From Amoebophrya sp. A120 (lineage: Eukaryota > Protista > Dinoflagellata), in assembly GCA_905178155.1 (NCBI GenBank), contig CAJINV010000001.1:4692747-4756746 (forward strand): 64,000 nucleotides of DNA. The letters run 5' to 3'. Below are positions 30,201-62,400 of the stretch, one piece after another. The notes beneath the pieces were generated by a model. That model was not told where the DNA came from. It did no database searches and saw nothing but the letters and a program-made list of their open reading frames with translations. The position numbers were made by a program, and so were the translations under genes. The first letter of the stretch is position 1. Every line of letters starts with the position of its first letter.

Positions 30201-33200
30201 ATGGAGGACGAACACCGCCGGAACACCACGGTCGGACGCATGTGGAAGCGGCTCAACTTCACCGAAGCCAACTCCCCGTTCTCTTTCGCGGACCGCGCGC
30301 GCGCCTACGAGCTGTACAGCGAGAGTGAGTCGCGGCGCCTGCAGATGGCGACCAACCTGCAGGCGGACATGACCATGAGCCAGCTGCAGACCATCGCCTT
30401 CGTGGAGAAGTTGGAGCTGCCGCTCCTCGCCGAAGCCAGGAGACAGAAGCTGTCGCGGGACATCTCCATGCAGTCCGCGTCGCTGATCGACGCGAAGCAG
30501 GAGATCGAGTACAACTCGCTCGAACCCACGCAGGCCGCCAGCATGCGGGAGAACGACATCCAGCGGATCGAGGCCGAGCGGCGGGTCAACATGGACACGC
30601 GGCGGAACATCTCCCAGGCGCTCACGCGGCTGTCGATTTACCGCGACCGCCTGGTCCGGGCCATGATCCCGGGTTTGGTCACCAACGCGCGAACGCCGCT
30701 GCAGTTCGACACGCCGATGTTCATGATGGACGTGGGGAAGGTGACGAACATGAGCGACGTGACCACCGCGTTCGTGTTCCCCTCCGAGTTCATCGTGCCC
30801 TCGGACGCGCCGGACGAACCCACGTCGACGAACAACCAGACGGCGCTCGCCTTCCAGTTCGTGCAGTACAAGGAGAACATCTACTACTGGAGTCCCTCCA
30901 ACCCGAGCAACCAGCAGTCCGCGGTGATCACACTGCTGATGTTCTACGCGAACGCGCAGCAGTATGGGAGCGTCAGGTTTGAAATCGACAAAGTTGAAAT
31001 GATTTGTCATGCATAAAATGCATACCAGTTGGAAACCCAATTTCTAAGCGGCGCATGACAAATTTTCCGAGCACCGAAATCCAATTTGTCATGCTGTTTG
31101 GACACAGACGACTGCTTTTGTCATGCTCCTTTAGCAGCTCTACTTCAAACCCTAAACAGGCTGACACGCGGCCTCACTTGCCATCCCGGCAAGACAGGCA
31201 CTTCATGCCTTGCATTTTATGCATGACAAATCCGTAGCCATTTTGGCTCAAGAAGCTAGCATCTGTCTATAGTCAAAATAAGAACTCTGACCCAAAGCAG
31301 AAAACAAAATAATGTGGTCGGTCGCGCCCGGTGCCAACGAGGACACCACTCGCGTAGGAGCCGCCCTGGAGGCTCTCCGCAACGATGTCGCGCACTTACA
31401 AAAACGGACCCGCGTAGCGATAAGGTGCCCCGACGTGTTCCACGAGGGGCAAATGCAGAGAAACACCAACGTCACAAACAAGGCAGAAATCCTAAGGCAG
31501 CTGTCTACAGTAATGGGTCGCGCATCAATGGGCAAGTGCCAAGATGGTGGCTCGTGGTCGCGAGAGCAGACCGACTTCTTCCGAACCCAGACGGAAGCCG
31601 TGGCGGAGTTGTTCACCGAAATCGCGCAGGCGCCGATGACCGTGCAGCACATCCGCATGACAGGGAACAATTGGGGCGAAATCCAGATGGCACCGACTTC
31701 CGCCCTGCAGAACCTGCTTGATTACGCCATCATAGAGTCCCTCAACGTAACTGGCAAGTTCAACAGTCCAGAAATTCACATCAGAATGCCTAGGGCGCCG
31801 ACCAAGAACGGCAAGGGCAAGGGAAAGGGAAAAATCTCCAACAGCAGCGACAACCCAAACCATCTGCCAGTTGGAGGGATCAAAGGAGCAGGAGCAGTGG
31901 TGCTAACGAGCCGCAGCGAAGTTGCAGCAAGATCGGGGATGAGGTCTAGGCGCCGCCAGTCGCGCAGCAGACGTCGGGAGTCTCGCAGCCGCCGGAAGTC
32001 GCGCATCCGGCATGCCCACCGCCACAGCCGTCGCTCCGGCAGCCGCGGTCGCAAATCTTCTTCAGCAAACAAGCAGTCAGACGACAGAGTCTTGCAGGAC
32101 AAGGAGCGCAACAAGGAGCGCAGCTCAGCCAACGGCGGGGAAGCCCGGGCACAAGATCAGCATCAGAATAAGCGGGTCGCAAGCGCGTCTCGATCACATG
32201 GAGAAGGAGCGGGGGCAGCAAAAAAGCAGAGGGTCCACAAGTCGCCGCGCGGCGAGTCCGGCGTCCAAGAAGAGGAAGGGGACGTCGGCGGCAGAAAATC
32301 CCTACCGCAAACTGGAGCCGAGAACGGCGGCCCCGGTACCGCAATCACATTAGCCGAGCTACAATCAGCCCTGGACAATGCAGGCCTGGCCGACGAAAAA
32401 CTGGCGACCAACGTGCGGAACTTATTTAGCAAAGCAGACCAGAGTAAGTCGCCGGCGCTTTGCGAAGCCCTGCAGCACTACGCGACAGAGGTCGACGGTG
32501 GCGACGCGAACCAGCCCCAGAAGCCCAGAACTGCAGCCGAGAGACAGGTCCTGAGGAAATGCGTAGAACAAGCAATCAAAAGTTACGGAGCCGCCCCTCC
32601 AAGCCACGCCCCCACCCCGTCACAGCTGATAATGCCTCCGCCGCGGTTCCCGCCGCCCCGACGCGAGATTCCCCCGGCCGCTAAGGAGACAGGCCAGCAT
32701 CAAGCCGTCTCGGGCGAGAACAATTCCGCGTCGAGCGAAGCCGCAAAACAAGCTACCACATCAAGCGGAGGCGCAAGCGACATTCAGGCCGCCGCCGAAG
32801 GCCCTGCAGCGGTGTCGCCCGTTATCGTGTTGCCGACCACAAGCGAGGAGGAATCCTCCTCGGAATGCACGGACTCTTCGTCGCAAGCAGTGCCCACCGG
32901 CGCCGAAGCAGCTGCTGGCGCGAAAGAATCTCCGGCTGCATCGGAGGAAACGCGCCTGAAACCCGAAGCGGACCTCGCAGAAAATCCGACCGACGAGCAA
33001 AAAGGGCGTCGAAGCGCCGGGCCAGCGGCGGAGAAACGGGAAAGCCCCCGAGCGGCGGAACTGGACGTGCAGGCGGAGTATCTGTTCATAGAGAATTCCG
33101 AACTCGAAGGGAGAATCACCAAAACGGTTGCGGTGTTCGACCACAGTAACCAAATCTGGAGATACATAACCGACGAGGCTAGCGTGCGCAAAACCGAAGC

Positions 33201-36200
33201 CGCCCAGAAGCCGGGGCTTCGGATCGTCAAGATGGCCCCGGAGGAGTACATAGCGTCTCGCCGCAAGGAGATGCAGGAGGCCGCCGCACCAACCCAAACC
33301 AGTGGCGCCGCCAGCCCGTATACGTCGCTCCGCCGGGCTGCAGGGTACCAAGCCCCGCCGTCCCGCGCCCGCACCCAGGTTGGCGGCCTCGATGATAAAG
33401 AGGGAGCGCGCACCCAGGTAGACGACCAGCGACGGGGCTCCCATGATCGGCGCCGCCGCACAAGCAACCAAGGGCGCGGCCGCCGCCGCCCCGACAGCCG
33501 ATCTCCCCGCCGACGTTGCAGCATCAAGGCGTCGCGCGGCCGACCGGAGTCGAGACCACGTCGTCCGGGCAACCGCTCCCCGACTGCCCGCCGCCGGGAG
33601 TCAAAGCCGCGTCGTCGCCACCGCTCTTCCAGATCCCGGTCCCACCGCCGGGGCCGCAGCAATGCAGGGCGCCGGAGGCGCACCCAGTCCCCGAGAACCT
33701 CCAGTGCGAGAGCAGACAGTCGCCGACGCCCGGGAAGGCGAGAGAAGTAAGCGGCCCAGCGGACAGGGGAATGATAGAGCCGAAGTGAAGCTACCGAAGT
33801 GTTGCCGGATGATGAGGCCGAAGTGCCACCGAAAGAAGCAGATCGCATTAGAGCTTCAAGTTTTCCTCGGACACAAAAATCAATCTCTCTGCTGCAAATC
33901 AAAGTAGTGTCCGAAGGAAATCAAAATCGGTTGATGAAACTGCAAGCACTACGATCGCCAAATGAAGAGGATCTGCTTCCTCTACAATGAGCGACCCGAA
34001 TCGCTCTCGGAAAATGCGCGGTCGTCATCTCGAAAAGTGAACCTCTTAACAGAATGATACGGTCGTCATCTCGGAATATGATCCTTGCAACAGAGTAATC
34101 AAATGCTGAAAGTTCTGCCAAATGAAGAGCATATTCCGCGGAATGCATCGAGCTGCGATAAGCTGCCGTTCATTATACTCGAGGAATAAATGTGCTCAGA
34201 CACGGAAGAAGAGCTCCAAGGGGCAGCATCCTTCCCGATACTTCGCATGCCTGAAATAAATACAGACACAGGGAAGAGGAACTCAGTAAGTCGCAAGCCC
34301 GAGCTTGTCATGCGTAGTTGAAGTGCCAGCTCGTGTCATGCTAAGGGTAGTATCGCTCATTACTATTGCAACGCGGAAAGCCAGCTCGTGCCAAGCTAAG
34401 GCCAAGGGTAGTGTCGCTCACTAGTACTGCAACGCGGCAAAACCGGACCGACGTGTTCTCGAGCGCTGGAGCTATCTACCGTTCCCCTGAGCGTCCATAA
34501 GACGGTAAAAGCTGCGGCGAAGGTCGTGTTTGTCTTCAGACACGACGGCACGCGGGTCCAAACAGGAAAAATTCTTCTAGAACAGAGGGAAAAATCCAAT
34601 TTCAGGTCGTCCCTGGAGACGAACAGGCGGGAACTACGGGTAGCGCGCCAGCGACAGACCCCGGGCTCCGGAATGATCTAAACTGCGGCCCCGGCCCTTC
34701 CCGGCGGAGAGGGTTAAGAAACAGGGCGACGAGACGACCGGCCTCCTGCTAGCAGCCGCCCGCCACATCACGCGAAGCATCTACACGCGAAGCAGCGCCG
34801 CTTTCGTGTAGTGAGAAGAACCCGCCTGCCAGGCTTAATCACGGTGACCTAAATTCCACGACAAGGAATCCGTGCCCGGGCGATCGCAGATGGCTACTGT
34901 TCGCGGCCGAATGGTGGCAAGGCTAGAGGACCTCGCGCCGATCCTGGAGCACCCGGCCGTCCCTGCTCCTAATGCCCAACCTGATCAGCCTCCAGCACCA
35001 CCGCTTCCAGGGCCAGCGCGGGAGCCGGTCCCAGCCGAAGACGCGGCGACAGTACAGCCGAAGCACGCGTTCATCCTCAGAGCGGCTCTGGAGCCAGCCG
35101 GCACAAGGATGAAACTAGTTAAAGTCGTCCGGGCAGCATCGAAAAGACTCGCAGCCGGGCTGCGGGCAGCAAAAGAGCACCAGCTGCTCCTGGAAATGGG
35201 GCCACATTGTCACCGAGAACTCATGAACAAAGCCGCGAGCAGGAGCAGAGACGAGCAGAGCCGGGCGCAGCGGGGTGAAGTGGAGGAAACGGAGAGGATC
35301 ATCAGAGCAGGGTTGTGCATTCCCGGGAGCCCAATGTCCTACCACGACGAGATCGCGATGGCGGTGTGGCGAGCATGTTCGGCAAAAACCGGCCCGCTGG
35401 CTACCTGTCCAACCTCCTTCCCAGCGTACACGGGCGCGTGGCCGATGTGCGCAGCGGCCGACGACGGAGTCGCCCTCCGGAGAACAGACCACGCGTTCAT
35501 AGTCGACCCGCGCAACGGACTGCCAGACGGGTTAAAACGCGCTGCCTTCCCCGGCGGTGGGTACATCGCTGCAGACTGGCCCTCGTCCCCAAGTGCCTCT
35601 CTAGCCAGCGCCGGCATACGACACACCGGTAACCGCGTCGACATGGACTTCGCAAAAGCAAACGCCACGAAGGCGTTCGCGCGACGCCTCGAAGCGACGG
35701 CGAAGCAGTCGCATTTCTGGACAGCAGCGGACGGGAGGAAAGCAGCGGACGAACCAACAGAGGAGGACATGATCTGCGCGCCGGAGCGCCAAATCTCGAC
35801 GAGGAACATAGCAATCAACTCGGGCTGCAGGCACGGCAGATGCGCCGACTGTGTAGCCGAGGGACGCGCCCTTCTTCCGGTCTCCCGGCCGCACAACGAC
35901 ATAGTCCATCCCTACTTCGCGTCGTTTCTATCTGTCGAAAGCGTCCCAAAATCCGGCAAGCCCGCCGGCAAGTGGTTCCCGAAGGCAGGAGACCGAGGCG
36001 CAAGGCCACAAGCCGCCGATCCACCGGATCCAGCAGCGCCGGTATTTCTGTGGGTTCCGGCCGAGGCGGAAAGTCTCTTCTCTCCGGAAACGTGGCCGAC
36101 CAAGATGTGGAGGTGCACGCAGTGTGGCGAGGCATCCGGGCACGCAAGCATGATGCTGGCGCACGTCGTGCTCTGCCGCATAGGGCGGCTAGGGCGGCTG

Positions 36201-39200
36201 TCGGACACGGCACTAGCGAAGCTTACGGGCTGGGCCAGAGGGGAGCGATCCGGCCTGATCCGACATGGTCGCCTGATGGAACCGACGACAACTACCAGTT
36301 ACGACCTTGCTGCTCTTCGTCTGAATCTGTGCCACGCAATACCCCCGGAGGACCGCGAATGGTCAAAGAGCCGGCCGTTCATCCTGCTTGTTCTCAACGC
36401 ATCTCGGGGCCTTGCCACGCAATGGCCATGCCTCGTACACGAAATCCAAGCGTCGCAGGCGCTCGCGGTCGTCGTCTCCGAGGCCGATATCTTGACACCG
36501 GATATCCGCCCAAAGGTCCTGGACCTGCTCAACATAACGCTCCGCGGTCGGTATTTCATCTGGCAGTCGGAAAGGTCGCTCGTGCTGGTTGCGCACAGCC
36601 TCCGCCCTGCAGCACACGCCAAGGTGCAAGCGCTACCTGGCGCGCCGACCCTAGTGGCGATGCAGCTAGCCCACGACGACATCGCAGGAGAGCTGGTGGC
36701 CGGGTACTTGCCGCCAGCATCAACCGGCGACCGGGTCTCATTGCGAGAGCAGCAGCAGGCCGTAGTGAAGTACTTGGAAGAAGCGGGGCCCAGCGTCTGC
36801 GCCCTAGCGGGGGATCTCAACGTCAGCACCGGGGCAGTACTCGCGGAGCGCCCGAAGCGCAACGCCTTCCGGGACCAGATTACAGCCGCTGCAGAGCCGG
36901 CCGGGCTTCGCCCTTGCCTGGATCCGGGGGACGTTACCTTCCTCGCTGCAGACAGACAGCCCGACCTAGTCCTGCTCCGCCCCAGGGCCGCCTCCACGAA
37001 AATCGTCACCACCATCCAGACCCCCAAATTCCTGCCGGCAAACGCCAACTCCCACGAACGAATAGACTGCGAGCTGCGTCCCGCAGGCAGCCGGGAAGAG
37101 GAGGCGCGAGCCGCCCAGCCCCAGAAGCAGCTTCAGCCCGGCCTCGTCCGCCGATTTGTCTACCAATGGGCAAGCTTTCCACAGGACCTGCTCGACCGGG
37201 TACTTGCCCGAGCCCGCAAGGCCCTTGCCGATCCGGATCCGGACGAGGAGTTCACGAGCGCATCTCTGGGCCGGATCCTCCGCGCCGAAAACGCGCCGAA
37301 ACGGAAAGCCCCGATCCCCGCCGCGCACCTGACTCTCCTTCGCGGGGACGGAACCCTCTCACAATCAACTGCAGAATCCATGGAGGAGTTCCGGTGCAGA
37401 CTCCTAGAGGGCAAACCAGCCGGCCTGCGTCGCCCTCCAGAAGAGCAGCAATTATTGGAGGCTGAGATCCGCGCCATCATCGACCGCGCCCCAGATTGCC
37501 CGATAGAATGCACGCGAGACCTCGCAGCGAAGGCCCAGCGGAGACGAAACAAATCCGCCGCGGCGGGACAAGACGGCGTGCCTGCGGGTTTGCTGCTCGC
37601 AAGTTTCTCCCTCTGTTGGGCCATCTGCGCAGCCGTATGCGCGGCGCTAAACAACTTCTCCGAGCCGCCATGGAGCAAGCAATACCTTATCGCCTGGCTG
37701 TGGAAAAGCAGCAAGCAGGGAACTACGAAATTCCTAAGCCGTTTCTGGCGGCCTATCTCTCTTCTGAACGTGCAGGACAAATTTTGCGAAGCAATAATCT
37801 ACGAAATCGGCCTACCGCTACTCAGCGAATTCCATGACAACACAGCCTTCCACAAATCGTTATCTCCTGCCGTCGGCATTCTCCGCGCCCTACTCATCGC
37901 CATGCAGTCTTCGTCCAAATATGCCGCGTGCATAATAGGCGACATTCAGGGCGGCTTCGAAAACTGCTCCATGAAAGAGATCGTAGAAGTTTTAGCAAGC
38001 AGGGGGGCAAGCAAGCAACTGCTTACGGCGGTGGTGCATTGGATGACGGGCAGAACCATCCGGCTCCTGGTGGACGGTTGCATGTCTGCCACGATAGCCC
38101 TGGGAGAAGGCCTGGGGCAAGGCACGCTATTGAGCCCGGGATATTTCCGTATTGTCGTGGAGTCGTACCTGAACCAGCTCGGCCTCCGCTCAAACTTCCT
38201 GGAAGTGGTCACAGGCTATTGCGACGACATAGCGATATTCTGCACGGGCGAAACGGAGGCGGAAATCAAGGAGAAGCTACGAGACCGCGGGAACAAGCTG
38301 CTGCGGATGCCTTGGCCGGTGGCAGACTTCCGGATAGCCGTCCTGAGGTCCCCGGCTCATGCGAGCGGAGACGAGAAGGCCCTGGCCTCCTTCTTGCGCG
38401 GCTTCTCCGTCACGCTGGAGAACGGCCTGCGCCTCCAACCCCCAGAGATCGAAGTCGTCCTAGACAGTGACGCCTCCACCGCGGTACGGGTCCGGGGCCA
38501 AGGGAAGCGCTACAACAAAGCGGCCTACGCGGCGGTGCTGGGTGTGCCACTAACAACCAGCGGCGAAGCCTGGCGCAGCCATTTCGGCGATCTCCAGCGC
38601 CGCGTTTTCGCCTCCTCCACGGACACCAGCTCAACAGACGACTTCTCCCCCCTCGAGGGGGTCGACCATTTCCACCAGAAAATCTATAATGTCCTCCAGT
38701 ATATGTCGTCCGTGAAGTCCATGCTGTGCCCATCGGCCTTGGTAACTCTGGACGACATGGCCGAGAAGGCTCTCCGCCGAATCATGAAGATCAGCCCCAC
38801 AGCACCGGCATACTCTACTTTCCTTTCGGCGGGCGCAGTCGTCCCGTCAAGCGCAGCTCTAGCGGAGCGGACCGCGTTGTGCGCCCAGGCCATAGGGTTG
38901 GACGACAAGAACTTCGCGCGCGACATGACGGTGGGGGAGCTGTTCGACCTCCGGCGGCCGGGGTGGACCCATTTAAACATCAGCCACGAAAGACACCCTT
39001 CCGAACACCTGCCGGACGCGGTGCAAATAACAAACGCGGCTGCCACTTTCGAGAAGTACGGCCTTCCCCACGCGAAGGCCAACACGCCGGAGGTCGCAAA
39101 AATGCTGCGGGCCGACTTCGAGGCCCTGGAGCGGACACTGGGTCCGGGCCTCCTATGGGTCGCGACCGATAGTGGGGACGCCCCACCGACGCCGGGCGAG

Positions 39201-42200
39201 CCGCTGCGGAGCCCGAAAGAGCGGATGGCAACAATAGTGATGCGCCGGGGGGGAGACGAGAAAGGCGAGAACAGTCTAGCTCTGCGGCTGCGACATACCC
39301 TGGCCACGTTCTGGGGCGAAGCGGGCGCCCTCGGCGTCGCAGTCCTCCTGCTGTTCGATTCCCTCGACGTCCCGCTGGCGGCCATCAACGACCCGCGCAT
39401 AAAAGTCGTCGTCTTCCAATGCGATTCCAGTCCTTGCCTAGACAACCTGGCGTCATCGAGAACGGAAGAGACATGGGTGGCGCTACGCACTGCCCTCGTC
39501 CAATTAAGCAGGGCGCTCCCGCACATCAAGTTTGTCCTGCACTGGACTCCGGGCCACAGCTCAATCTCCCCGCACACGGAGGCGGACACCTTACAAAAGG
39601 CGTCCCAACTCCCGTCCGACAGGCTCGAGCGGTACATCGAGCTCCGTATCCCCCTCCGCCAAGTTCGCAACTTCATCCGCGCCTCTCTTCGAAAGGAAAT
39701 AGTAGATGCGGTGCGTGCGCGGGGCGAAGTGTCGCAAACAGGAGCTAGCCGCGGCCTCATCTCCGCAGAACTAGGGAACGCCCGGCCCTGGCTCCGCGGC
39801 CTCAGCTCCAAACAGCAATGGATAGCGTGGTCAATCTGCAGCGGCGATGGCCGACTCGCAGCCAAGGAGGCGGGCAGCAGTGCCGGATCGTCGTGGATTC
39901 GCTGCGGCCTGTGCAGCAAAAAGGTGTCAGCGACAACAGCTCTACCGGCGTCCCAGGGCGATCCTGCCTTCTCCCAACAAGACCCGGAAGTAGTGCTTCA
40001 GCAAGACGACACAGAATTCGGCGCGATAGACATAGCATCCGCGGAACTAAAAGCGCAGCAGGACCGCGCCCCTGCGGACTACGCCAACGCCGCGACGCCT
40101 CCCGTGGCAGAAACGGCTGCTCCCGGCCCGGAACTAGAACAAGATCAAAGCAATGACGCGCCGGGAGACGTTACGGAGGATGACGCAGCACGGGAAAGCC
40201 GTAGTGCGTCCGATCGCCATGTGTTGTTCAGCGGTTACGCAGTCCATGTCCTCTCCCAGGAGTGTTCCGCGATAAAAGAATTTCTGGCAGACAACGACAT
40301 CGAAGCGACACCAAGCCACAAGGCCCTTCGAAAACCGGCCAACGCGATCCGGGCCTTCTTGTCCTGCGTCGGGCCCCCCCCGCCCCCAGCGGGAGAGTGG
40401 CCAATAGAGGCGGCCCAGAGAGAGAAGCGCGACGACAAGCCCCCCCCTCCAGCAGTGCAGAAGAACATCGAGCGAGCAGCACGAGCGTACCACCTGATGG
40501 TGGAAGCAAAGGCAATGAACCCGCCGCCCCCAGCCTCTGCTACTCAGGACCCGTCTCCCGACCCCCGCCCGCGCGACTTCGTCCCGGACGAAGCGCACCG
40601 CTTCTACACTGCCGCCCCGGACGCCACTCAACCGGAAATAGCGGACGGAGCCGCGGCAGCAATTAGGGCCCTAGAGATAGTTCAGCCGGACCGCCCGGCC
40701 CCGAAACCGGGCGCCCCGGGCCCCGCCCCGGCCCCTCCACAAAAGCCGCCGGTGCTGCTATCGGGATTCTTTCGTGACCAGACCCCCTTTCGCCACGATC
40801 CCTGGTCCCACCTGCGTCGGCCGCCCCCCGCTCCCCAGTCCCCAGCCATCACACGCAGTAGGAGCCCTCGCCTGAGATACCGCCTTCCTACGCCCATCCA
40901 CAGCGCATCATCCTGCGCTGCAGCACGCAGCTTCTCACCTCCAGTCGAGGCCCCGGAGCTGTGCCTTCGTGCCCAGACGATGCAAATGCAGGTCGCGGAG
41001 TGGAGCGACGACGAGTCGATGGGCACCGCAGCTGCCGCTGAAGATTCCCGCCTTCCCGGGCAGCCGCTGATTGAGATCCCGCCGAAAGTAGAGATACGCC
41101 TGGACCCGGTGACAGGGCTCCCCATCGGTCCTTCTGACCCAGTATTCTGGGATCCGCTGGGGGAGCTCAGCGAGGACGCCTCGCAAGACCTCGAAAGCGG
41201 GCGGCACGTCTAACAAAAATAAGCAGCTAAGGGCAGGCTTCAACGTAGAAGCGACATGAGCTCGAAGCTGAGAGAAAAGGAGCCCCGCACACGAGCATAA
41301 TCCCGCAACAACATTAAGATAGGCTTTTGGCGCCATAGCGTGCTGCTTCGGCAAAAGTGCGCTCGACGCCGACGCACTAAATAGCACCAGGTTAGAACAA
41401 AGTCAAAAGAAAGCTACTGTCGCCCGTCACCGCAAAAACTAACTTTATCATCGTCGTCGTCTGTCATCGTCCTTTTCGTACCTGGCCTGCTAGGGCCCAG
41501 CCGGCAAACATGTGGCTTTCGGAAAGCAGGCTGTAATCGCACGACCATGGCAATGCTAAAAGCGTACGACTGTCACTTCTCGTCTTACTTTCGTTTACTT
41601 CGTAGTTCTGGTCTGCGTCTGTTTTTTTTGGTTTTCTGCTCCGGCCCCTTGCATGACATCTAAAAGTACATAATAGGGACGAAGGCGTGGTTGCCGCATA
41701 GTTGCGGCCTAAGAGAGGACCGCGGGCCTGTGTTGTTGATGGAGCCCACGCATGACGAAGTAGAAGCCTCATGAAATAGTCTCTCTGTGTCCTCTTCCAA
41801 TAACAAAATCACTAAGTCAGGAGCCGCAGGAGACTCGAGCCAGCGGAACGCGCTGCGGAGCCGCGCGACGAATCGGTGAGCCAGCAAGCCGAGTCCACGG
41901 ACTGTGCATCCAAGAGCCGGAAGTGGGCTGAGATCTGTCAGTCAACGTCGGTAGACTATGCATGTCAGTGCGAGTATGTATGGCTTCTCGCAGATGTAGG
42001 GCAAGATAGTCCCCGTTGTTTTCGCCTCAGTTATCTCTCTTCTATCTATGACGCCTGCCTCGGTGCTACCAGCCACGTAGCTGAACGTGTCTCGAAGAGC
42101 CCACCTCCGTGTTTCTTCCTCAGCATACGCACAGAGCCAGCGTCAGCCACCAGCTCGCCATGAAGATAGATTCTAAGCCGTCCGCTGCGGTGCCGCTCAA

Positions 42201-45200
42201 TCAGTCCGCCTCACAACCCGCTCGCACTGTGCCGACGACTATCGCGAGATGCCCAGGGTCGTACACGTCTCTCTGGGTCCGATCTCCGTGACATACCGCT
42301 GCGGCCCACAACTCCAAGGTGTACGCGCACACTAACGGTAGCCGCCCGATCAGTAGGTAGTGGAGGACTGTCCACGCCACCAAACCCGCCTCACCAGCCT
42401 ACGACCGGCAATTCGCAGCTGTCTTTCATCTCCGCGGTTCTATGGCAAAACCGACAGCTCGATGCCCCTCCGCCCGGCGAGTGCCTCACGTCGCTCCTGC
42501 AGGGCCACCCGTCCCTCCGACTGCGCCGCGCCGGTACCTGCGTCTCGCGTGCTGCTGGACCACCATCCTCCCGTTTCATATGCTGACGTTCTTCTGTGTA
42601 TCAATCCGTCAGTTTCCCGCATTCCGGCGCTCTCCAGCCAGTTCCAGTGTTGCGGTGGGGATAAGCTTCAAGTATCTTCCTTCTCAGTAACAGGCGCTCC
42701 CAGCTCGTCGTGCCGCAAGCTCACCAGCAATTCCTCTTGGGTCGAGGCCTTTCCTCGGAGGTGGGGTTGGGCTTGGGGCGCCAGGCGTATGGACGGCTTC
42801 GCAGCTACGTCGTGATCGACAAACTGAGATCGGCGATTCTAGTTGTGTTGCTGGTCCTGTGCCAGTCGCGGGGCATGTTCGGGTGTTCCGGGCAGTGCTT
42901 AGTGCACCCCTCGGACCCCGCACCCCCCCGGGCTTTAGTCGCGCAGTCTGTTAAGCATGACAAATCCCAACATGACAAATCATTTCAACTTTGACGATTT
43001 CAAACCTGACGCTTCCATAAGCAGTACCCCGTGTGCGTGGAGGGCCCGGGCTGCAACGTGAAGAACGAGTTCATCCGCGTGTTCGCGGACTACTCCGTCT
43101 ACTCCTCGGGGATCTGCATGATCTGGGATCGCTTCTTCCCGGACACCGCGGGCGGCGCGTGGAACGGCCGCGACATTGTCAACGACGGCAACGGGTGCTT
43201 GACCCTCACACTAGGCGATCTCGGCTTCTTCGTGGACGGACGCCCCTCGTATATCTTCTCGTTGACCGAGGCCAGCACGTTCCCGCTCTCCAGGCTGGTA
43301 TCCAGGACGAAACTGTCTACCCTGGCGACGCTGGTACAAAGACGAATTTTTGTTTTTTTTCTGCAGTTTCTGGCTCGCCTTGGCAGCTCGTACAGTGCCG
43401 AAGAAGCTTGTGCTAAATTGATTTTTTTCTGCATAATTCTAATGAATTATTGATTTCGAACACAAAATCAATCGAAGTCGAACTCGAAGCAAGAACGCTC
43501 TCCACGCGAGTGACTTAACATTCGCCGCTAGTTCAATGTGATTTGTACACGTAAATCTAAAATCAATCATTCTCCCATCTCCTCAGGTGATGATCCTCCT
43601 TTTGAATTGGTTCCTGGTTTTCTGGGGATACAAGCACGACGAGAAGGTGCGCAGCGACCAGCGTGCGGGCATCATTCCGTACACTGCGTTCCACTACGAC
43701 GGCGACGGGATCCACACGCCCCAGAACGCCAACGACCCGATCGCCTACAAGTTCGCGGATAGCCGGAACCAACTCTTCCTGAAGACGTACTGGAACGTGC
43801 TGAAGCGGGAGCACTTGGCGATCGCCCCGATCTTCTACCACGAGACTTTTACGCGGCCGCAGCGGCTGCTGTGTACCATGGGGCTGATCCAGGGGCTGAT
43901 GGCGATCAACGCGATGGTGTACGGCATCCCGAACAAGTTTGCGTCCAGCGAGCAGTTCGTGATCAGCGGGATTTTATCCTCCCTGCTGATGTTCCCGGTG
44001 TACTGCGTGTTCCTGATGATGTTCACTTCGCGACCCATGCCCGCGAAGCGACGCATGATCAAGAAGCGCCAGGTGGCTCGCGAGTTGGACTTGATCAACG
44101 CCGAAAAGGAGAAGTTGATCGCGCAGTCGCAGTTGCTTCCGAAGGACGCCGCACCCATGCTGCCGATCGGCGGTCTGGCCCAGCAACAGGAGTCGATGGC
44201 GCTGTTGGCGCTGCCGCCGCCCATTGCGGGGCCGGGTCCGGGCGCAATGCTCGCGCTGCCCGGGCCGGGCGGGTTCTCCCAACCTCCGGCGCCAAAGTAC
44301 CCGCCGCCGCCGGGGTACGCGAAGGCGCTGCCGCCACCGCAGGAGCTGCTGCCACCCATCTACTTCGGACGCGCCGGCATGCCGCAACTGCCCGCGCTGC
44401 CGTCGTTCACGCCGCAGCCGAAAACCTCCACCCCGCCGCAGACCGCGGCCGCACTAGGCGGCATGCGGGCCATCACGCCACGGGGGAGGGCGCCGCTGCC
44501 GCCACCGGCCATCGGGCCGCCGGGGGAAGGACCCGGCACACCCATGGCCGCGGAAGGCGCGCATAACCTGACGCCAAACAGCGGATTCAGCACGCCGTCA
44601 CCCCTGCACGCACCAAGGGAAGGCATGCACTTCATGGTGCCGGCCTCGTCCAGCAGCAGCAGTTCGTCTTCTCGAGGTTTGTTGAGTGGCGGTAGTTCAA
44701 GTTCATCTAGTTCGTCGTCCTCTTCGAGCAGGAGAATAAATCAAAACAACTTAACATACCGAGAGGAACAACAGAACACGAGTGTCGACCCTCTTACGGT
44801 GCAGCAATATCCAGGCGTGCAACAGCCAGAGTCGTTCTGGAGCCCCGTGCGGTCCGGCGGATTCCGGTACCACCCGAATGATGAGAGGATAAGACAGGGA
44901 AATGATGTTGAGAACAGATCCAGTAGTTCGTCCTCTGCTTCGTCCGAAGCCTCGGAAAGCCCACGGGTCGCCTCACCCGCCATGAGTGCACGGGAAGCCG
45001 CGCACTCCGGCGACGAGTTCGAGGCCGAGGAAAGCATTCCCGTGAACTGGTTCGAGGGGGACCATGAAATGATGCCGCCACCACCGGGAGGAGCCGGGAG
45101 GCCCCCACCGCCCCCGAAACCGCCAGCGCTGAGTGGCATGCCGAGTCACAATCCAAATGGAGGTAAATTGATTTTTTACATTATGCGTTTTTAGTACTAA

Positions 45201-59400: not shown

Positions 59401-62400
59401 AGATCCGGCAGAGCGAGTGCGCGGTGGGGGACCAGCAGCTGTCCTGCAACTGGGAGTGCGAGTCGCACAACCCGGACTGGACGCCGAACGGAGTAAGTAC
59501 CACCATATCAAATGCAAAAATGTCTGGGTCTGGAAGAGTGCAGGACTTGTCATGCACATTTTGCATGACCCATGATATCTGTGATGCATGCCCTAGCATC
59601 ACAGATTTTTTGACGGCTTTCTGATGCCTATACTGCATGAGAGACGCCCTCTCCGCGAAGCAAGAAATGGACCTCTTTTGCTGATCATGCAATACAGATT
59701 CTGTGTACTTAGAATCCAGAGACAGCATCACAAGTTCCAACCTTCCAGACCCAGACACTTTTACATTTGATACACCATGGAGTGCGACAACAGTCTGTTC
59801 GAACCGGAGAAACTGCAGTTCCCGGTCTACGGACAGACCCTCGGGTATGGAAGTGTCAGAATCGAAATTGACACAATCGAAATGATTTGTCATGCATAAA
59901 TTATTGGATTCCAGTGCCCCCGGGGGCGAAGCCGGGTCACCAAGGTCCACTAGTCGTCTCAGTTCCGCGCTGAGGTGCCCACGACTAGGATAGCATGCGA
60001 ACTCCCCCAGGAGGCAACCTTCGCGTGTTCTCTCTTCCTCGTTTTCTTCCCATTGATCTCGGTTTAACTAACTAAAATACGTTCGAAATCGGTACACGAG
60101 GAAGGGAGGCCCATCTTTCATGATCGTCGTCTTTTCCTATTACAGAAACAAGATCCATCCCGTAGCGCGGTCCCCTTAGTTTCTGCTCGTTTTCACAGAA
60201 GATCCTTTGACTCATGAACAGCTGAGGAACTCCAGCACTGTTTCACTTAAGTAGCTATTCCCCACCCTGCCCAGCGATTCTCCCCCATGAATCACATTTC
60301 TACCCGCCCTTCCGTCGTCCCCCGTGTGCGTCCTCGTCGTTGTGGTTTCGTCTAGCTAATTTTCCTGGCCGAATACCTTTACTTAGCACGGCTCCGCCAC
60401 CACCGGTTCTTTTGCATGAGGGTGGAAGAGATTTTCTCATAGCACGTCCAAAGTCTACCAGTCAAGCAAGTAAGCCCCCCAATACCGGACCCCGCTTCCC
60501 CCCTTAGATATGCGTTTCGTGATGTGTTTGCGGCCTAGCTAAGCATACCAGTTGTGTCGGAACCGCATCCCGGTTCCAGGGGTTAGCATTTGTTCCCTTC
60601 GTGGTCGGTTCTGCCACCCGGCAGTTCTTTCCAACCCCTGTCTGTTTCCCCTTTATATATTAGTGGCCCCCGTGTTGTCGTTCGTAAGGTCTGCAACCCA
60701 TAATAGCCGCGCACCAGGGCTAGGTGTTCCCGTTGTTTCTCCGAATGTGAAGGATCGCGCACGCTTTCGGGGGGGCAATTGCGTGCCGCAAGTCAGACAC
60801 TTTGCAGAGAAACGCCACGGCGCTCGTTTTCGTTAAATGGAAAAAGGAAAGCGATAACAGGCCCGGCAGTGGCCGCAGGTCATGAGCACAGACAGCAACG
60901 AAGGGCCTACGCATTCAGGTCATGAGCATGGCGACAGCAGGCACCAAAGAAATGCGCCACGGGCTGACTATCGTAATTATGCGGACTCGCGCCCCCCTCT
61001 CGTCGCCTTTCTTCTGTGCGTTCCTTCGCCCATTCCAAGAGATGGCTCGGAGTTTTTTTTTGTCTTTCTTTCCTCTTTTCCCAACCTGTCCATCCTCTGG
61101 GGCGTGCCTGATTATGAGATAGCTACTTAAAATTTTTTCTACGACGAGAGCGGCCTGGCTTCGTCGTCCTTTTTCCTTTTTTTCGTTGCCCGCTCCATTG
61201 TCTTTTGCATGGCACACGAATGCGACACGCATCGAACGTTGCTCGGTTTTCTTTCAGGTTTCTCTTGGCCTGTCGTCTGGTGCCCTCGGTCTGACTTTAG
61301 ACATCTCACCCAATAGATTAAGCGATAGGACATGCGAAGGAAGTAGATGAGATTTTGCATTTGGCGCAAAGGCTCCCGCCCGCAGGCTCCCACCCGCCTG
61401 GCGCCCTCGGTTTCCTGCGCCTCCGGGCGCCTGAGACGGTTGCCCTGCGGTCATGATTTTTGCTTCTGCATTTGAGGAACGACAGCTACGGCCATGATCG
61501 CTCTCTTTGCATTGCTTATCGCTTTCCTTCAATCTCAAATAAAAGCGGCGCCTACCCCCCGTCTCCCTCGGTCTTCTTTCGTGCCAAAATGGTGTTGGTT
61601 CCGCCTTGGTGGGGATCAGCCGAGCTACTTATCGCGAACCCAAAAAAATATCGAAAGTCTGTCTGAATTTTGTCTGTCCAAACCCATTGCTATTTGCATT
61701 GGTTCCATTTGCATTCCTCCTCCTCGGCCCCTGGATCCCTTACCCTGGTTCACCGGTAGTGCCCCCCCCGGGTCTTGGACGTGCCTTCTACTCCTGCGGC
61801 GGATGACTTGTCTCCTAAACGCACCAGGTTTCAGAATCGTACGCTCCCGCTACATTAGGTTCCAGTCTTAAAATTGCCCGGGAACTCACCACCCGGGATC
61901 GGACATTCAACTTTCACATTCACATTCACATTCACATTGGATTCCAGTGCGAACCCAGTTTCTAAGTGGCGCATGACAAATTCTGGCGGTGCCTAAATCC
62001 AGTTTGTGCTGCTGTTTGGGCAAAGAAGGCTGATTCTCTCATGCTGCTCTAGCAGCTCGAGATATGACCCCAGACAGGCTTACAATCGGCCTCACTTGCC
62101 TGCTCTGCAACACACGTATTTCGCGTCATGCATTCGATGCATCACAAGTTTTTCGATTTTGTCAATTTCGATCCTGACACTCCCATATCGGGATCCCGCG
62201 GTACACGTTCGCCCCGCCGACCTACTCCGCGGACGACATGGCCGCCGGACTGCAAAAATTCCACGAGTACCGGTTTCGCATCGTGTGCGTCGTGGTGCAG
62301 TCCGCCACCGACGTCGTCGCCAACACGGAGACGCAGCAGGGCCAGAACTATCAAAAGGAAAAATCCCCCCTCCCCATATCGAAACGAAGTTTCTGATGCT

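Follow-up and report, generated by a model that had tools for sequence, protein, structure and literature searches.

The window analysed here, 64,000 nucleotides of Amoebophrya sp. A120 (assembly GCA_905178155.1, contig CAJINV010000001.1), contains an 11.7-kb element with two open reading frames whose insertion site is the right terminal inverted repeat (TIR) of an introner. The element is a full-length non-LTR retrotransposon (LINE): its reverse transcriptase is of the non-LTR type, its target-site duplications are of variable length, one of its copies is 5'-truncated, and comparison of both element ends with the window revealed no terminal repeat. The features of the locus are as follows.

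30963–31011, + strand: left TIR of the host introner, recognised by its sequence and its complementarity to the right TIR; it starts with TAT and is preceded by an AGCAG direct repeat (30958–30962)
30963–31230, + strand: left part of the host introner, with five GCATGACAAA sites on both strands and relatives at 61938–62187 and at the metagenomic locus L001
31222–31232, + strand: 5' copy of the target-site duplication, CATGACAAA(TC), whose last 2 nt are common to the start of the spliced leader (SL)
31231–31252, + strand: complete 22-nt dinoflagellate spliced leader (DinoSL) forming the 5' end of the element, matched to the sequence printed in PMC12014239
31312–33750, + strand: ORF1, 812 residues, Arg/Ser-rich, lying under a contig of sequencing run X3 (31182–34329, depth 36.5)
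34890–41213, + strand: ORF2, 2107 residues without a stop, assigned from an RVT_1 match, Atlas features and motifs kept in relatives
41214–42954, + strand: 3' UTR ending in GCAGTCTGTTAA, whose last 53 nt are identical in L001
42955–42970, + strand: target-like tail GCATGACAAATCCCAA, the extra motif copy, making the junction 15 nt longer than at L001 and present in X3 contig 16
42971–42981, + strand: 3' copy of the target-site duplication, beginning at C, an exact repeat of the sequence at 31222
42971–43019, + strand: right TIR of the host introner, recognised by its complementarity to the left TIR; it ends with ATA and is followed by AGCAG

The reverse transcriptase of ORF2 (residues 953–1125) matches the Pfam family RVT_1 with an E-value of 6.9e-13, the best PDB matches of the protein are R2 and L1 ORF2 proteins, and its N-terminus bears Cys/His motifs; no Pfam match was found for ORF1. 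Residues ~495–735 of ORF2 are likely to form an APE-type endonuclease, as suggested by the EEP families found among 25 of 30 Atlas hits (a comparison of language-model features, with scores of 0.91–0.94 and fewer than 170 shared features), by N, E, Y-x-P and GDxN motifs kept in four relatives, and by the EEP domain present in 10 of the 11 distant reverse transcriptase neighbours scanned. A profile built from the region itself returned a weak signal: E-values below 1 were obtained for 11 of 145 distant proteins and for 1 of 145 reversed sequences, and none was under 0.01. Pfam and PDB searches of the region gave no match, two AlphaFold runs yielded pLDDT values of 34.8 and 34.2, and in the alignment the final SH motif is missing from two close relatives. 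Further downstream, residues ~1420–1570 are a likely RNase H, a domain found in 21 of 30 Atlas hits and whose motifs are conserved in two relatives. Among the 150 protein matches listed, six are close (35–48% identity, E up to 1.4e-20) and the other 144 have 22–34% identity, mostly over the reverse transcriptase region only, a distribution suggestive of a small, divergent lineage.

The leader at the 5' end of the element is followed by AAG and not by GT, which suggests the retroposed end of a trans-spliced RNA rather than an SL RNA gene. One complete DinoSL-like coding sequence per genome is reported in PMC7789003; the complete leader at 31231–31252, without a GT after it and at the head of a retrotransposon, may be the one counted. 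A single X3 contig spans the leader, ORF1 and half of the spacer (31182–34329), while ORF2 is covered by short pieces at a depth of 3–4; the long contig may represent an ORF1 RNA of its own, with its end close to a pair of inverted GCATGACA sites (34313, 34341).

The host introner displays the features described for Amoebophrya A120 introners in PMC7789003, namely TAT-starting inverted repeats and short direct repeats, and there are contigs that join its host exons. Its arms (30963–31011 and 42971–43019) are 96% complementary. The joint between the host exons, 30957–43020, skips 12,062 nt, leaves the reading frame open, and is present in contigs of runs X3 and X7 (that either run is RNA is a guess) and absent from the X1 and X2 contigs. 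Since X3 contigs also contain both element junctions, the X3 strain carries the insert. Introner splicing would thus appear, from the joints in these two runs of presumed RNA, to tolerate 12 kb between the inverted repeats. Two pieces of the host gene were scanned and gave no Pfam match.

Both junctions read exactly as they had been described in the first-pass annotation, which proposed that the LINE hit a signature motif of the introner and that an extra copy of that motif took the place of poly(A) at its 3' end. The left junction is ttttat-GCATGACAAA-TCCGTAGCCATTTTGGCTCAAG, with the motif at 31221–31230, and the right one (42955–42981) is gttaa-GCATGACAAATCC-CAA-CATGACAAATC-atttcaac. A poly(A) or short tandem-repeat tail is usual in LINEs, if not universal; neither poly(A), an A-run, a microsatellite nor a tandem array is present at the 3' junction of the window copy or of L001, and in the window copy 15 extra bases, a second copy of the motif, are found in that place. 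The intact left TIR of the host introner does predict a single motif, as had been pointed out. Exact direct repeats of 13 nt (31221/42955) and 11 nt (31222/42971) flank the insert, the latter defining a duplication of 9–11 bp, CATGACAAA(TC). The microhomology of tc(c) proposed between the target and the start of the leader comes down to TC (2 nt) if the empty site had one motif, the third C being gained only with an older duplication. An assembly artefact was ruled out by X3 contigs spanning both junctions (X3 is a separate study from X1 and X2): contig 16, at a depth of 4.7, matches 42905–42988 with no difference, doubled motif included, only 18 letters being compared past the extra piece, and contig 18, which includes 49 letters upstream of the left junction, spans it without a difference. 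No empty allele of the locus was seen, with either a single or a doubled motif.

In the window, GCATGACAAA with at most one mismatch has 56 matches where 4.92 are expected. Because the motif is so much commoner than chance, a single hit proves little and the case for targeting rests on other copies. All 15 exact 10-mer sites of GCATGACAAA in host DNA lie inside introners, which make up ~8% of that DNA; 13 of them fall in introners called by inverted repeats alone, five of these in the host introner, and the other two lie within a split introner missed through the length limit. The 8-mer GCATGACA is likewise found in introners at 26 of 28 host sites and continues with AAT at 9 of the 28, and the 11-mer is followed by CC at one of eight host sites. 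GCATGACA also recurs, in both orientations, in no fewer than 13 additional TAT...ATA introners, which belong to several TIR families (2007–63841). GCAUG is the core of a known splicing-factor site.

A second introner (59846–62187) belongs to the TIR family of the host introner and is interrupted by a different, 2.0-kb insert flanked by a 15-nt duplication (59903–59917 and 61936–61950). The end of its (TTCACA)n tail overlaps the target; the insert lies near the motif but off it, and is likely to be a truncated non-LTR element of another family (59903–61950). Introners thus collect insertions anyway, which leaves the exact site of the window element still to be explained.

A search of metagenome contigs with a pattern ending at GTTAA, from which the motif was left out, returned one locus, L001. 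It holds an 83-nt 5'-truncated copy of the element, the last 53 nt of which are identical to the window element, inserted at TTTTAT-GCATGACAAAT in the TIR of an introner belonging to the family of the host introner (with which it agrees at 78%, and with 61938–62187 at 93%). The arm concerned corresponds to the left arm in the window, that is, the opposite TIR, and the host gene is a different one, with no tblastx match between the two. The copy is in sense with the open frame of its host gene, so that the sense orientation of copies rests on two cases out of two. Its duplication is 18 nt long (16–18 bp) and its 3' junction has one motif and no extra piece. The source of L001 may be the same strain or one close to it; the locus counts as an independent insertion but not as an independent lineage. 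A random junction would have the 10-mer at some position within 16 offsets with a chance of 0.23%. At the 5' junction of L001 (2950–2980) a short piece of the element is repeated (GCCGTGCATT twice), a duplication that is likely to be a template slip. Shorter patterns gave three hits in genome contigs and two in viral contigs, all chance matches without element or motif, and a protein scan of the viral contigs for the element gave no match.

The window and L001 are the only two insertions with both flanks seen; one-sided junctions were collected from runs X1 and X3. The X1 survey took in 58 aligned contigs (13 partly), the best 12 of 20 loose-end rows and 16 of 72 pieces; both surveys reached 18 nt into the TIR under a 10% share filter, and same-TIR insertions are probably not listed. 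Among the six 3' junctions listed for X1, three align through GCATGACAAAT (42965), two through ...AAATCC (42967) and one through GCA only (42957), and none stops at gttaa; two X3 contigs likewise extend to 42965. Copies ending at gttaa or in poly(A) within unrelated DNA, which the first-pass annotation had named as the contrary outcome, were therefore not encountered among these six. The pooled 3' flanks agree at 0.58 in both groups, close to the values for random flanks (0.56 for three, 0.63 for two), indicating different sites that are not all the TIR of the window. All 11 bases of the motif are kept in five of the six listed X1 junctions against 9 of the 28 host 8-mers (p 0.015). The CC of the tail is common to two of five other copies, which is weak evidence given that CC follows the 11-mer at one of eight host sites. 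On the 5' side, an X1 flank at 42863 ends TTTGCATGA|CA, and two pooled flanks (X1 at 42923 and X3 at 42850) are motif-like, each with a p of ~0.003 under a simulated tie rule that makes them weaker evidence. Among the other X1 5' rows, that at 41625 resembles the element itself and that at 42691 belongs to a diverged relative. X1 contig 4, a relative of the introner, departs from the reference over 2840 nt beginning at 31230; we weighed it as a candidate insertion and discarded it, since a diverged TIR accounts for it.

Independent copies thus occupy an identical position in a repeated sequence, seen with both flanks in the window and L001 and with one flank in X1 and X3, one X1 copy matching at only three bases. 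The X1 3' motifs could all be borne by the element, and copies carrying GCATGACAAAT as their own 3' end might insert randomly, those in introners surviving because splicing removes the introner, just as the (TTCACA)n-tailed element occupies a site off the motif in another introner of that TIR family (59903–61950). The 5' flanks, however, are host DNA, and they too carry the motif in the window copy, in L001 and in one or more X1 contigs, against a background of 0.2–1.3% per junction; this contradicts random insertion, and we consider such an account very improbable. That the element targets the motif is, in our judgment, highly probable. The proposal of an introner-targeting retrotransposon made in the first-pass annotation is thereby borne out as to the motif, through L001 and the X1 and X3 junctions, but not as to the introner, since the X1 copies with long unique flanks may or may not lie in introners; 'motif-targeting' is better put than 'introner-targeting'.

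The doubled motif is peculiar to the window copy, and the single motif at the 3' junction of L001 indicates that doubling is not a fixed trait of the family. The host TIR might already have carried a 15-nt duplication, with the element inserting in register at the first motif and generating a 10–13-bp duplication, as in L001; the insertion step itself would then need nothing unusual, and the 13-nt exact repeat GCATGACAAATCC flanking the insert, put forward earlier as a possible 13-bp target-site duplication, fits this history. The left TIR shows one motif, though, X1 and X2 each contain three contigs, derived from other copies of the introner, in which 31221 is joined to 42971 with a single motif, and a prior doubling with four new bases exactly at the later insertion site would be a coincidence. 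We therefore disfavour this history, which is improbable as the source of the extra bases and still a little more so as an account of the whole locus.

A more serious competitor, albeit one that we think rather unlikely, is that the endonuclease, or the N-terminal Cys/His domain, targets the motif alone, the element RNA ending ...GUUAAG and the extra 15 nt arising from this one insertion. Either four bases were added, the melted 11-nt target strand copied and a jump made to the RNA, or an aborted nick-and-fill doubled the site before full insertion. The single motif in L001 and in the listed X1 junctions is as expected from such an enzyme, the piece repeated at the 5' junction of L001 indicates that slips occur in this element family, and the endonuclease of Tx1L by itself nicks its own site (PMC1950540). 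The extra copy is moreover exactly the duplicated target segment (11 nt) plus G. What speaks against it is that an exact 12-nt template jump and four untemplated bases are required; the CC of the tail in two other copies is a weak further objection, and the selection of 11 bases, together with the likeness of tail and target upstream of the motif, suits pairing somewhat better. As to the 15 bases alone, the chances of a target-templated slip or an aborted insertion appear to fall somewhat short of even.

An origin of these bases in a tail of the element RNA, as first suggested, has about an even chance. It is favoured by the 11 bases kept in five of six junctions, by the CC in two copies, and by the agreement of GCATGACAAATCCCAA with the target at four of the six bases upstream of the motif. 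Against it, L001 lacks the extra piece and its junction is explained by a sequence-specific endonuclease alone, and the length of the extra copy equals that of the duplication, as a target-templated slip would give. The doubling is accordingly no proof of such a tail, L001 having a single motif and a slip explaining the window junction almost as well.

Target-primed reverse transcription is established for the non-LTR class. The explanation that we prefer overall, with a probability slightly better than even, is a motif-targeting LINE in which a likely APE-type nick is combined with RNA likely to end in the motif and to prime copying. The predicted endonuclease would nick the bottom strand at G^CATG, the cut on that strand reading TGTCATG^CA: the 3' duplicate is preceded by A where the target has G, which places the nick of the window copy there if the tail is element- or event-derived, while the junction of L001 leaves its position ambiguous. 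The second nick would vary, falling 9–11 nt (window) and 15–17 nt (L001) further on. The element RNA, ending in the same motif, would pair with the nicked strand and prime copying in place of poly(A). Its 3' end would then hold GCAUGACAAAU and carry GCAUGACAAAUCC, and variant targets (e.g. GCATCACAAA, GCAAGACAAA) would show the full motif on the 3' side only, or junctions would again be doubled. Pairing in register would yield the usual single-motif junction seen in L001; in the window copy, copying would have started from the extreme end of the RNA, and GCATGACAAATCCCAA would thereby have been retained ahead of the duplication. The tail itself may be read-through from the target of the parent copy, as in R1Bm and R2Ol. 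The motif would steer copies mostly into introners, with which they would be spliced out, and trans-splicing at the AG of its own relict leader could release a sense-oriented copy from the host pre-mRNA. More tentatively still, and with some doubt, one may picture a hyperparasite lineage of LINEs for which the motif-ended RNA serves as guide and primer partner in place of poly(A) and the motif is inherited anew by every daughter through read-through of its target, which is transcribed with the host gene, released through its relict leader and removed with the introner, and which would need neither promoter nor tail of its own.

Among known systems, target-specific APE-type elements are reported mainly for the Tx1 and R1 clades and have rDNA, small-RNA genes, repeats and transposons as targets (PMC4640811). 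Tx1L of Xenopus laevis, of the Tx1 clade, has a sequence-specific APE endonuclease and inserts inside the DNA transposon Tx1D (PMC1950540). Both it and the window element, with its predicted APE-type endonuclease, are non-LTR elements that sit inside another mobile element. Unlike Tx1L, the element described here has for its target a 10–11-nt motif occurring in many families of spliceable TIR introners, an ORF2 of 2107 residues with a likely RNase H and a spliced-leader 5' end, and we do not assign it to the Tx1 clade. In R1Bm, SART1Bm and R2Ol, target-like sequence at the 3' end of the RNA reportedly anneals to the nicked strand and sharpens priming (PMC7265360, PMC6795142; R1Bm via PMC7265360), and an analogue involving poly(A) pairing is described in PMC1965478. 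These three elements insert into 28S rDNA or telomeric repeats, the pairing was tested there and is inferred here, and R2Ol has a restriction-like endonuclease in contrast to the predicted APE-type enzyme of the window element.

The window element is not inserted in an SL gene, its flanks being introner TIR. CRE, SLACS and CZAR are non-LTR elements linked to spliced leaders, to which SL-exon-specific elements such as NeSL may be added (for the latter, see below). NeSL (PMC4640811) and its kin insert into SL genes with a restriction-like endonuclease, whereas here the leader appears to be the retroposed 5' end of the element itself. Dinoflagellate retrogenes carry genomic relict DinoSL sequences derived from trans-spliced RNA and open to renewed trans-splicing (PMC12014239); unlike these relicts, the leader in the window is complete (22 nt) and heads an autonomous two-ORF retrotransposon.

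No element targeting Amoebophrya A120 introners is described in the accessible parts of PMC7789003, and we found no report of a retrotransposon targeting introners or GCATGACAAA in the literature searched, most subscription journals and Repbase lying outside its scope. If our reading is correct, a divergent lineage at spliceable introners would have found a new safe haven within transcribed genes at low cost to the host. GCATGACAAA would be singled out as a motif recognised by protein or RNA, through which the mobility and splicing of introners, so far unexplained, might be approached, and the element would provide an 11-nt targeting system of natural origin in which the respective parts of RNA and protein are readily testable. 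Nested inserts can, in addition, mislabel the origins of introners. Some A120 introners are attributed in PMC12130899 to non-LTR or LTR elements, labels to which inserts like the window element could give rise; the 3' 17-mer of the element is absent from the supplements of that paper that were searched (all but files 13–14).

Depth in X1 is 45.6 over the element body and 42.3 and 45.6 over its flanks, reaches 82 over 41630–42775 (about twice single-copy) and is many-fold higher over the last ~200 nt, which are multi-copy. From these contig depths we roughly estimate that there is likely one full-length copy, accompanied by some 10–25 short ends. The predicted RNA fold of 42740–42970 is not significant (z −1.63). 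Next to the region of doubled depth (41630–42775), an X1 contig departs from the reference at 41625 into element-like sequence, and the two observations together indicate another long relative whose 3' UTR is nearly identical. The last 200 nt (42740–42965) are partly common to diverged relatives, a joint at 42821–42872 being present in both X1 and X3, and X3 contig 14, with 12 differences, has flanks on both sides; several families may share the 3' end of the element.
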